Source: a virus (lineage: Duplodnaviria; Caudoviricetes). Taken from it: a stretch of DNA of 63,953 bases. Below are positions 35,687-38,277 of this stretch, piece by piece. The notes beneath the pieces are model-generated. The model saw only the letters and a list, made by a program, of their open reading frames with translations. It searched no databases and was not told the origin of the DNA. The translations under genes were made by a program, and so were the position numbers. Positions within the stretch are counted from its first letter, which is position 1, and each line of letters starts with the position of its first letter. Where the stretch lies: positions 1 to 63,953 of the IMG/VR virus record IMGVR_UViG_3300030329_001933; one strand, given 5' to 3'.

Positions 35687-35899
35687 ATGGAAATTTTTAA
35701 GGATAACAATAACTGGAACGAGAAAGCTATCGTAGGGTTTATAGCGTTTACTATAATGTGCCTTATAATGATAGCTGACCTCTTAACAGGATGGGTTGGA
35801 ACAGACCTAGTAATAAACGAATTTGTATACGACTCCTTTGTTTGGGTAGTACTTGGCTGCTTTGGAATATCTGGAGTGGAAAAGTTTGCCAAAAAATGA
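35687..35899 (+). CDS. Small two-TM membrane protein (holin-like)
   Basis: Two hydrophobic helices, EKFAKK tail; ATG 35687. Confidence 0.6.
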   Translation: MEIFKDNNNWNEKAIVGFIAFTIMCLIMIADLLTGWVGTDLVINEFVYDSFVWVVLGCFGISGVEKFAKK

Positions 35900-38277
35900 G
35901 AAAACTATTTTACTTACTAGTATTTATTACTATTAACGCATTCCCTCAAGACAGTTTATTTGTAGATTGCAATGGGACACCATCTCCTGAAAATTGGGTG
36001 GGTGATGGATACTGCGATGACGGTTCTTATTCTTGGAATGGGAACCTTATTTTTTTTGATTGCGAAGAGTTTAATTATGATGGAGGCGACTGTGAAGCAC
36101 CTTTAGAGGAGGGTGTGTATGGTTGTACAGACCCCGAAGCAGTTAACTATAACCCTTTAGCAGAGATAGATAATGGTGGTTGTGCTAACGTAGCTTGCGA
36201 TGACGGAGAAGCTAAAATGCTTTTTGAAATCACATTAGACCAATACCCTAGTGAAACAGGGTGGATACTTACAGATATATCTAACGGTCAACCTATAGCT
36301 AGCGTGACAGCAGGCGAGTACTCTTACGAACAATCAAACACTACAATACCTTATCAGTTCTGTGTTCCTGAAACAGGTGTTGAACTTATATTAAGCGATA
36401 CATACGGTGACGGTATAGCTGGTTCGTTGTGGGGAGGAACAGATGGTAACTTTGTTATACTAGCTGATTTAGAGCCTTGTGGTAGTCCTGATGTTATTTG
36501 GGAACTTCCCGATCCTAATTTTGGAAGTGCCGCTTATTCTGGTCCTATATGGATAGAGCACTGTGATATACCTATCGTTTATGGATGCACAGATAATAGC
36601 TATTTAGAGTTTAATCCTTCTGCTCAAGTTGATGATGGTAGCTGTGAGAATCTACACACGCTAGGTTGTTTAAACTGGACATCATTTAATTATAATCCAG
36701 AGGCTACGTTAAACGAAATAATCCCTACTTGTGATTATACCTTGACAATAGGAGATGCTGCAGCTGATGGCTGGGGAGAATCCTATTTAGTTGTTACGCA
36801 AGAAGACAGTATTGTAGGAATATATACTATGGGTCCTGGGTATTACTACCAAGAGTTTAGTATACAGTTAGAAACAGATAAAGCTGTCAACGTATATTAT
36901 TTTGAAGTTGGAGGTTTACAGCAACCACAAGCAGAGGTTGAGTTTCAAACAATGCATAATTCTTTTGAATTAATAAATGCAGATGATATTATAACCTTAC
37001 AAGGTGGAGTCTTTCCCTTTTCAAACAATGGTAACGGTGCTTTACAACCATTTGAACCACCATTCTGGCACGTATACAGTGCTATGCCTTACTGTGGAGA
37101 CTATTGTATTCCATCAGTATATGGTTGTTTAATTGAAGAATCTTTGAATTATAACCCTGAAGCTAATACATCTGACGATAGCTGTATAGAAATTATAGAA
37201 GGTTGTACTTCACCTTTTGCGTTTAACTATGATGATATTGCTAATACTGATGACGGTAGTTGTGTAGCTGTAATAGTAGGTTGCATGGATAACCTAGCTT
37301 GGAACTACAACGTAGACGCAAATACAGCAGACGAGTCTTGCTTATACTTTGGTTGTACTGACGAGCTAGCTCTTAACTACGATAGTACCGCTAATGTAAA
37401 TAACGATAACTGTATATATCCTATTCCAGGGTGTACAGATCCTTTTGCTTTTAATTTTGAGGTAGATGCTAACGTTAATGACGGTAGTTGCATCCCCGTT
37501 GTAATAGGATGCATGGACCCATCAATGTATAACTATAATGAACAAGCAAATACAGAAAGCGATAACTGTATTCCTTTTATATTTGGCTGTACTGATCCAA
37601 CTGCATTTAACTACGACCCCGTAGCCAATACAGATAACGAATCATGTATCCCAGTAACACCTGGTTGCACTGATCCAAACGCTTTTAATTATAACGCAGA
37701 AGCTAACACAGAAGACTTTTCTTGTATTGACATAGTTTATGGATGTACAGATTCAACTTCTTTTAATTACGACCCTTTAGCTAACACAGATAACGAAAGC
37801 TGTATAGATGTTTTAGAAGGTTGCATGGATCCTTTGGCGTTTAATTATGACGCTATATATAATACAGATGATGGAAGTTGTTTATATGATGCGGGGTGTG
37901 TAGGAGATCCTGGAGATCCTTTCTGGTTAAACGACACGTGTTATGCCTGGGTAATAATGGTGGATCCTTATTGCTGTAATAACGAGTGGGATATTAAATG
38001 TCAAGAGTTATACTGGAGCTGTTCAGAGGATAGCGATCTCAATACGGAGGAGTTATTAGAGAATAACGCTATAATTATATACCCTAACCCTACAGAGAAT
38101 ATCTTAAATATCTCTAGTAGAGAAAACGTAAAGGTTAACTTGTTTGACCTTTTAGGGAACTTAATTTTATCTACAACAGAGAGCAAAATAAATATATCTC
38201 AACTATCTAATGGAACATATATATTAAATATAGAGTACAGAGGTGAGGTTATTAATAAGAAAATAATCAAGCAATGA
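35896..38277 (+). CDS. Secreted Cys-repeat protein with T9SS type A C-terminal sorting domain
   Basis: Signal peptide MRKLFYLLVFITINA from ATG 35896; LNR-like WVGDGYCDD...YDGGDC; 13 GCxD...C repeats; IYPNP...FDLLG...LSNGTYILNI...KKIIKQ. Confidence 0.88.
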   Translation: MRKLFYLLVFITINAFPQDSLFVDCNGTPSPENWVGDGYCDDGSYSWNGNLIFFDCEEFNYDGGDCEAPLEEGVYGCTDPEAVNYNPLAEIDNGGCANVACDDGEAKMLFEITLDQYPSETGWILTDISNGQPIASVTAGEYSYEQSNTTIPYQFCVPETGVELILSDTYGDGIAGSLWGGTDGNFVILADLEPCGSPDVIWELPDPNFGSAAYSGPIWIEHCDIPIVYGCTDNSYLEFNPSAQVDDGSCENLHTLGCLNWTSFNYNPEATLNEIIPTCDYTLTIGDAAADGWGESYLVVTQEDSIVGIYTMGPGYYYQEFSIQLETDKAVNVYYFEVGGLQQPQAEVEFQTMHNSFELINADDIITLQGGVFPFSNNGNGALQPFEPPFWHVYSAMPYCGDYCIPSVYGCLIEESLNYNPEANTSDDSCIEIIEGCTSPFAFNYDDIANTDDGSCVAVIVGCMDNLAWNYNVDANTADESCLYFGCTDELALNYDSTANVNNDNCIYPIPGCTDPFAFNFEVDANVNDGSCIPVVIGCMDPSMYNYNEQANTESDNCIPFIFGCTDPTAFNYDPVANTDNESCIPVTPGCTDPNAFNYNAEANTEDFSCIDIVYGCTDSTSFNYDPLANTDNESCIDVLEGCMDPLAFNYDAIYNTDDGSCLYDAGCVGDPGDPFWLNDTCYAWVIMVDPYCCNNEWDIKCQELYWSCSEDSDLNTEELLENNAIIIYPNPTENILNISSRENVKVNLFDLLGNLILSTTESKINISQLSNGTYILNIEYRGEVINKKIIKQ
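37123..37881 (+). repeat. Ten tandem ~75-78-nt coding repeats (GCTDPxAFNYxxxANTDxxSC)
   Basis: Visible in protein and DNA. Confidence 0.9.

Follow-up and report, generated by a model that had tools for sequence, protein, structure and literature searches.

The viral record IMGVR_UViG_3300030329_001933, a stretch of 63,953 bp that we analysed as a whole and refer to as the window, carries on its + strand a gene for a cysteine-rich protein of 793 amino acids (35896..38277). The protein begins with a Sec-type leader and ends in a type A C-terminal domain (CTD) of the kind that directs proteins to the secretion system of type IX (T9SS). Inspection of the leader and the sequence comparisons of the CTD described below support the assignment of the two as a Sec-type leader and a bona fide type A T9SS sorting domain. 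This protein, referred to here as the cargo, is probably a phage-made T9SS substrate, namely a binding fibre that is exported by the T9SS of the host. Phage-encoded T9SS cargo is already in print. New here are the counted linkage of the cargo gene to the gene of an outer-membrane barrel, which is tight in the near clade and completely absent in a distant clade, the apparent origin of the cargo from host modules, and a sorting domain that appears to have been swapped.

The features of the cargo gene are as follows.

35896..38277, + strand: cargo gene, with Sec leader, modular Cys-rich body and T9SS type A CTD (793 amino acids plus stop)
35896..35949, + strand: signal peptide (residues 1-18) with Gln at the likely cleavage site, from inspection of the translation by eye
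35950..36099, + strand: LNR-like Cys/Asp module (residues 19-68, 4 Cys), from motifs in the translation; model pLDDT 44-56
36121..36183, + strand: two-Cys repeat 1
36196..36579, + strand: predicted beta-sandwich domain A with a D.YGDG motif (AlphaFold2 model)
36583..36732, + strand: two-Cys repeats 2 and 3
36733..37110, + strand: predicted beta-sandwich domain B with a DGW motif (AlphaFold2 model)
37123..37881, + strand: stalk of 10 tandem two-Cys repeats with a period of about 26 amino acids
37891..38031, + strand: CC/W-rich six-Cys module (residues 666-712), highly conserved
38071..38274, + strand: T9SS type A C-terminal sorting domain (PF18962, TIGR04183)

The sorting domain was recognised by two family models. 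PF18962 matched residues 728-791 of 793 (E 7.9e-13; 48.9 bits against a cut-off of 27), and the NCBIfam model TIGR04183 matched residues 728-793 (E 3e-12; 46.4 bits against a cut-off of 23). An initial annotation, made from the sequence of the window, had called a type A CTD here and had proposed the TIGR04183 hidden Markov model (HMM) as a check, and the call was borne out by that model with PF18962 in agreement. Within NCBIfam, type A ranked first for the cargo, followed by one weak type C row, and no type B CTD model was returned at E 1 or lower. The CTD is the only part of the cargo that Pfam recognises, and the cargo is the sole PF18962 protein among the 53 open reading frames (ORFs) of the window that were scanned. 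The best match to a PDB sequence, although weak (E 0.056), was the CTD of F. johnsoniae NucA (8glk chain D), which aligned end to end; NucA is a proven substrate in that organism, and the structure shows its CTD within the T9SS complex. PF18962 was also matched in 8 of the 10 distant cargo homologues tested and was present in all of the 120 best database matches of the cargo. In one subfamily of cargo homologues (loci L040-L046 and L118-L129), the CC/W module is followed by a tail of about 45 amino acids, in which the last CTD motifs are kept, as judged by eye, but in which Pfam calls no CTD. This short tail may be a minimal T9SS signal or may reflect loss of T9SS routing. Another tail of interest was found in five large secreted bacterial proteins (L224, L225, L226, L228 and L231) of two architectures, MAM plus lysyl oxidase and S8 protease plus MopE repeats. 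These proteins have in common about 30 C-terminal residues without a Pfam match, which may be an unnamed C-terminal sorting tail.

We take the ATG at 35896 as the start of the cargo gene. A longer in-frame start exists at 35791, but 35896 is the better choice because translation from 35791 would overlap the upstream gene of a 70-74-amino-acid membrane protein and bury the signal peptide. The Sec signal peptide named in the initial annotation is readily seen on inspection, with a basic N-terminus, a hydrophobic core and Gln where cleavage is likely. Gln occupies the likely leader cleavage site in three other exported proteins of the gene cluster as well. This agrees with the Q-rule of Bacteroidetes (PMC5837995), and a passage of PMC10367356 notes the same rule for exported proteins of Porphyromonas phages. 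The cargo contains 42 cysteines in 793 amino acids.

Between leader and CTD, the cargo is built largely from small disulfide-type units and two larger domains. The two-Cys repeats number 13 in total, as in the initial annotation; 12 were found by regular expression and one by eye (residues 437-456), in a 1 + 2 + 10 layout. The repeat occurs in no further ORF of the window and was without a match in a PDB sequence search. The N-terminal part of the cargo was modelled with AlphaFold2 on an alignment of 35 rows (mean pLDDT 71). In the model, the two regions that had been described as beta domains fold as beta-sandwiches, domain A with pLDDT values mostly of 81-90 and domain B mostly of 73-86 per block of 10 residues. 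The columns of the D.YGDG and DGW motifs are invariant across the 35 aligned sequences. Foldseek comparison of domains A and B with the PDB returned generic tandem beta-sandwich matches only (TM 0.15 or lower), and a wide fold search again gave generic matches with no nameable family (best Z 5.9). The best of these weak fold matches were calcium-dependent carbohydrate-binding modules and modules of the PLAT/C2 type, and the invariant Asp/Gly motifs are possibly calcium sites. Look-alike clusters of domain A in the ESM Atlas were viral throughout, and BFVD contained three relatives from uncultured viruses, one of them automatically named as a sorting-domain protein.

The smaller modules at the two ends of the body fared differently. 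At the N-terminus, the initial annotation had seen an LNR/Notch-like module. The Cys/Asp motifs are indeed present, but the match to the Pfam Notch/LNR model (PF00066) spans just 18 residues and, at 11.3 bits (E 0.5), stays below the cut-off of 21.2. This sub-threshold match was seen in one of five members of the cargo family tested, and residues 19-68 contain four cysteines, compared with the six-Cys pattern of LNR. Thus, judged by its sequence, the module resembles LNR without belonging to the family. The CC/W-rich module of the initial annotation (six Cys) is highly conserved. Tandem copies of it also occur in proteins secreted by Myxococcota and Sorangium and in one from a Flavobacteriales metagenome-assembled genome (MAG) (L048, L049, L051); it is a widespread small disulfide module without a Pfam match in the scans run. 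Note also that five loci (L003, L029, L031, L032 and L040) carry ORFs of 1100-2100 amino acids upstream of the cargo, cut at the locus edge, which contain two-Cys repeats of the cargo type (31-36% identity) and in which no CTD or Pfam domain was found.

The gene resides in a phage genome. The window is one complete viral record (CheckV completeness 100%) with a 99-bp direct repeat common to both ends (direct terminal repeat), and recognised phage genes lie on both sides of the cargo, in agreement with its original designation as a phage gene. Matches in PHROGs and Pfam identify a terminase, portal, DnaB, Erf, exonuclease, M15 endolysin and a holin (GTA_holin_3TM). The capsid protein is of SU10 type, and the ORF at 50-2395 has a domain match to the Crassvirus muzzle protein. 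The window is thus a complete crAss-like phage genome. The absence of an integrase, reported earlier, held among 54 ORFs in the PHROGs scan and 53 ORFs in the Pfam scan. The nearest terminases, 36-47% identical, are those of an uncultured Caudoviricetes record and of Maribacter, Flavobacterium and Cellulophaga phages, and a Tenacibaculum phage is also among the relatives. These terminases, the crAss muzzle domain and Gln at the leader cleavage sites point to a host among the Bacteroidota. With regard to the ends of the record, a 2772-amino-acid ORF (55636-63951, 3'-open) and the ORF at 2-2395 (5'-open) both match the virion-protein family phrog_14478; they are probably one giant gene running across the record ends.

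Could the cargo region instead be host DNA that was joined to phage DNA by mis-assembly? A search with the cargo protein found relatives in 46 viral loci with neighbours as in the window, and the matched stretches were confirmed in 50 of 50 cases. The same neighbours recurred in 80 viral loci found with the adjacent barrel gene (see below), the two sets coming from many samples. Contigs of run X4 (records 10 and 14), from a sample that is not marked as the source of the window but belongs to the same study as a possible source, matched with zero mismatches across both junctions, spanning 35681-36048 upstream and 37581-39329 between cargo and barrel. A relative of ~92% identity from a different study has cargo and barrel on a single contig, and GC content is even along the window. 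Conserved synteny and bridging contigs thus exclude the chimerism that the initial annotation had wished to see checked.

We also considered whether the cargo is a component of the virion, with a CTD that merely has an Ig-like fold. Ig-like domains are common on phage particles, and in six related loci (L011, L012, L022, L090, L097 and L098) the gene module that includes the cargo lies between capsid and tail genes, as a virion role would have it. However, particles of tailed phages assemble inside the cytoplasm, whereas a protein with 42 cysteines and a Sec-type leader that can be cleaved off would be expected to fold outside it. Moreover, profiles of domains A and B match no virion protein of the window. 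A virion role is therefore highly improbable. By the same profile result, receptor masking through a copied receptor-binding domain of the phage is without support.

The cargo appears to combine modules of bacterial surface proteins in a manner found only in viral DNA. A single-protein search of the GTDB species representatives gave four loci with partial matches only, to the CTD or the CC/W module. A search with an alignment of the barrel gave six loci, every one a MAG contig, some labelled as archaea or alphaproteobacteria. The barrel is accompanied in all six by genes for a coiled-coil and a thioredoxin-fold protein, and in five by a cargo homologue; in the sixth, the barrel stands at the contig start and a cargo homologue is found on another contig of that MAG. 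We read these sequences as phage contigs that were binned into MAGs. We also sampled 401 genomes of the class to which one Flavobacteriales MAG belongs. Of these, 100 gave matches, but to single modules only, namely to the two-Cys repeats (40-60% identity), to the N-terminal Cys/Asp module, or to repeat 1 plus the start of domain A, and none contained the whole cargo architecture. Host proteins of 466-488 amino acids, consisting of leader, repeats and CTD, match cargo residues 410-793 at 38% identity. Cargo modules are further matched by host proteins that combine MAM with lysyl oxidase and by S8 proteases carrying metal-binding repeats of the MopE type; bacterial proteins of the latter type contain stretches 57-67% identical to the LNR-like module. 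More than 5,900 database proteins have the repeats of the cargo in common. The A/B sandwich pair, in the arrangement seen in the cargo, was absent from the 401 class-level genomes and the GTDB species representatives searched. Since the class-level and GTDB matches are modular only, the cargo is best described as host-surface-type modules in a combination found only in viral DNA. The comparison of phage and host genomes called for in the initial annotation thus found the full architecture nowhere but on viral contigs or phage-like contigs from MAG bins, and the separate modules in Bacteroidota surface proteins. The 7-kb region around the cargo gene had no match in deposited phage genomes.

This distribution bears on the view that the cargo is a mere passenger (moron) assembled from host surface-protein modules, of no specific benefit and sited where genes for exported proteins cluster. 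Bacterial counterparts exist for every module type, including the 466-488-amino-acid host proteins, and the gene is a mosaic in which CTD and tips have been swapped, both as expected of a passenger. In contrast, an intact reading frame, leader and CTD have been kept across dozens of divergent phage genomes with several gene orders, and the residues of the domain A and B motifs are invariant across 35 sequences. Since frame, leader and CTD are kept and these residues are invariant, selection in phages can be argued, and we regard a passenger without function as very doubtful.

The cargo evolves much faster than the three genes immediately downstream of it, which encode the barrel, the coiled-coil and the thioredoxin-fold protein (the trio). 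Across 61 loci, mean identity to the window was 55.7% for the cargo and 76.6, 78.8 and 68.7% for the three trio proteins. Tip modules vary by lineage: LNR-like in some, MAM in L034, and a piece resembling AMPK1_CBM in L033 and L036. The number of repeats ranges from 6 to 23 among 83 distinct cargo homologues. Comparison of the cargo with its 13 homologues of most similar sequence gave only 27-35% identity for the CTD, as opposed to 42-87% for the other regions of the mature protein. The CTD of the window is without a seven-residue insert that its nearest relatives have in common, and the CTDs closest to it (67% and 49%) occur on other cargo lineages. Because CTD identity falls far below that of the rest of the protein and the closest CTDs are on other lineages, the sorting domain appears to have been exchanged relative to the nearest relatives of the cargo. 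This comparison suggests that the phages match the tag to the host, and a swapped CTD could serve as a host-range marker.

The genes flanking the cargo are as follows.

35688..35899, + strand: small two-helix membrane protein (tm74), its stop overlapping the cargo start (ATGA)
38274..39308, + strand: predicted exported outer-membrane beta-barrel of 344 amino acids, its start overlapping the cargo stop (ATGA)
39311..39595, + strand: 94-amino-acid protein, membrane helix at the N-terminus and helical towards the C-terminus (coiled-coil), conserved with the barrel
39600..39935, + strand: 111-amino-acid exported thioredoxin-fold protein lacking CxxC, with weak Thioredoxin matches
39974..40498, + strand: 174-amino-acid exported protein with a domain A/B-like motif (HMM E 2.7e-4 and 1.5e-7)
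40500..41353, + strand: endolysin (Peptidase_M15_3) and holin (GTA_holin_3TM)

Upstream of the cargo, tm74 is a protein of 70-74 amino acids whose two hydrophobic helices and charged tail give it the shape of a holin, but it has no family match. Conserved copies lie close to the cargo in 31 loci of the first set, and in the window the translation of the two genes is coupled. Downstream, the 344-amino-acid protein models as an outer-membrane barrel of ~14 strands with generic fold matches (NanC, TamA, OmpG and Tsx; Z about 10). It had no Pfam or NCBIfam family match at E 0.1 or lower, PorP/SprF included, and no specific link to PorV or PorP; a chain of a T9SS complex, 8gl6_F, came no higher than rank 23 in Foldseek. 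A complex prediction for barrel residues 20-344 and the cargo C-terminus scored 0.27 against a mark of 0.32, which speaks neither for nor against binding. The 174-amino-acid protein has the D.YGDGW motif of the beta domains of the cargo and was not seen in related loci by BLAST.

Searching viral sequences with the barrel gave at least 551 stretches, of which the best 80 loci are counted here. A cargo homologue is present in 72 of the 80 and all four genes, cargo and trio, in 69; the eight loci without cargo are cut within about 0.75 kb of the trio. In distant members the gene order is permuted, with the genes still adjacent, and the module usually abuts endolysin and holin. A profile search with the barrel (415 clusters at 50% identity) revealed a distant clade, P0158, about 28% identical to the window barrel and represented by 130 viral stretches; for another distant barrel, P0258, no viral locus was found. 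Among the best 80 P0158 loci, coiled-coil, thioredoxin fold and barrel occur together in 67 and a cargo homologue in none. This includes all 21 of the loci that extend for 4 kb or more on each side. PF18962 was matched in none of 60 ORFs from five P0158 loci, and GTA_holin_3TM lies directly downstream in all five. Because this clade keeps trio and holin without the cargo, the cargo is separable. These gene neighbourhoods indicate that the trio travels with the holin and can work without the cargo, which would be an accessory in the lineages of the window.

The trio itself (38274-39935), which we encountered in viral DNA only, adjoins GTA_holin_3TM holins, with or without the cargo, in two or more phage lineages that are unrelated. 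The window yielded no recognisable spanin (no PHROG spanin match). In both clades the trio lies next to the holin, the position expected of a two-component spanin; a lipoprotein partner is absent, and the 344-amino-acid barrel stands in its place. For Bacteroidota phages, in which the outer-membrane step of lysis has gone unrecognised, the trio is a candidate for this step.

These findings raise the alternative that the cargo is a working part of the envelope or lysis apparatus of the phage together with the trio, anchored by the barrel or substituting for a spanin at the outer membrane. The frequency with which the four genes occur together, the truncation of the exceptions, the persistence of the association in distant phages despite permuted order, the overlap of the cargo stop with the barrel start, the usual proximity of endolysin and holin, and the lack of a recognised spanin in the window would all fit such a role. 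However, the distant clade maintains its trio beside GTA_holin_3TM with neither a cargo homologue nor a PF18962 protein in the loci counted, which argues that the trio works without the cargo. The cargo also diverges much faster than the trio and bears the host's own export tag. A lysis role of the cargo is thus possible, if unlikely. A reading that joins export and trio is that all four genes build one envelope-spanning phage device, in which the barrel would hold the T9SS-delivered fibre on the cell or its debris and the fibre would mask the receptor or tether the cell to new hosts; the lineage of the window would in this way have added a fibre to a lysis-linked outer-membrane apparatus. We consider this quite unlikely; if true, the virus would program both the secretion system and the surface of its host at release.

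We return to the reading that we favour, of the cargo as a fibre exported by the host T9SS. Starting from the observed gene and domains, its phage origin, distribution and linkage, we infer timing, export, T9SS passage, surface location and binding as follows. The cargo would be translated in an infected Bacteroidota cell, probably late, because its gene lies in a strand block of lysis and virion genes. Sec would carry it to the periplasm, where its cysteines can form disulfides, and the host T9SS, to which the type A CTD would deliver it, would then move it across the outer membrane. In the resulting extracellular fibre, the base would consist of sorting domain and CC/W module, the stalk of the ten disulfide-stapled mini-repeats, and the far end of the two beta-sandwich domains with the small Cys/Asp module. 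This layout reads as that of a binding protein of the adhesin or lectin type rather than of an enzyme. The exchange of tips, repeat number and CTD between lineages is as expected of a protein that tracks a variable ligand and the secretion machinery of the host. As to purpose, our tentative guess is binding at the surface of the infected cell, or on debris near lysis, which would mask receptors and so protect progeny, or stick the cell to particles or neighbours. The results do not distinguish among the purposes listed in the initial annotation for a remodelled cell surface, namely adhesion or aggregation, receptor masking, grazer avoidance and jamming of the T9SS.

Several points weigh against this reading. 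A T9SS is presumed to be present in the host. There is no cultured relative, as a comparison with 50,697 deposited phage records gave no match to the cargo protein or to the barrel. The proposal of binding follows from architecture, because the fold matches of domains A and B are generic, and T9SS routing may not be essential, given the subfamily that has only a ~45-amino-acid tail. Since 72 of the best 80 loci place the cargo with the barrel trio beside lysis genes, it could act in lysis rather than in surface display. The timing is deduced from gene position only. The sequence TAcaTTTG at 34955..34962 (+ strand) precedes the opening gene of the + strand block by 32 nt and resembles what we take to be the -7 promoter box of Bacteroidota. 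However, the two-box promoter pattern of Bacteroidota gave no more matches in the window than expected by chance or in shuffled sequence, and a scan for sigma-70 promoters and terminators likewise gave no excess over shuffled sequence. Run X20, a metatranscriptomic library of a viral metagenome, contains contigs that match parts of the cargo gene and of neighbouring genes at 90-95%; these do not show transcription, because such a library can contain DNA.

If the T9SS does export the cargo from infected cells, marine phages of an abundant group would reprogram the surface of Flavobacteria-type bacteria, which live on particles and have a major part in degrading algal polysaccharides. Infection could then alter how cells adhere or aggregate, or how phages adsorb. 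The cargo family is large, and we encountered it in viral DNA only, with 46 cargo-seeded viral loci and 72 barrel-seeded ones among the best 80.

Among known systems, the closest in build are type A T9SS cargo proteins of the hosts themselves, such as NucA (8glk) and the small repeat-plus-CTD proteins. These have a Sec leader and a type A CTD, and two-Cys repeats and a CC/W module are found in both; the window cargo differs in being encoded by a phage and in having the A/B sandwich pair. In pairs of the SprB-SprF type, the gene of a cargo with a type B CTD adjoins that of a dedicated PorP/SprF barrel. The window likewise has the gene of a presumed surface fibre directly beside that of an outer-membrane barrel; however, its CTD is of type A, the barrel fold is generic and the barrel also occurs without the cargo. 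Proteins of the T5 Llp type are made by a lytic phage and act in the host envelope in receptor masking and superinfection exclusion. By analogy, the cargo would be another lytic phage protein that works in the host envelope for the benefit of the phage, although the two have no sequence or fold relation.

Among phage genes, T9SS sorting domains have been described twice. In full-text searches of the literature we found no other description, and no experimental test, of phage T9SS cargo genes. de Jonge et al. 2019 (PMC6949934), in the passages concerned, report ORFs with T9SS sorting domains near the head genes of crAss-like contigs from the gut, one of them combining the sorting domain with carbohydrate-binding (BACON) repeats; those passages describe no linked barrel trio. 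The window phage is marine rather than from the gut, and its cargo has two-Cys units in place of BACON. The 'Cryophage' of Bellas et al. 2020 (PMC7468147) has three T9SS type A cargo genes, which the relevant passages call a unique occurrence. As with the window, phage products end in a T9SS type A domain, are presumed to hijack the host system and vary between variants. According to the same passages, the Cryophage products are an endoglucanase, a GH39 protein and a PA14 protein encoded in flexible islands. In contrast, the window cargo has no enzyme domain, is built as a Cys-repeat fibre, keeps a conserved position and is linked to the envelope trio.

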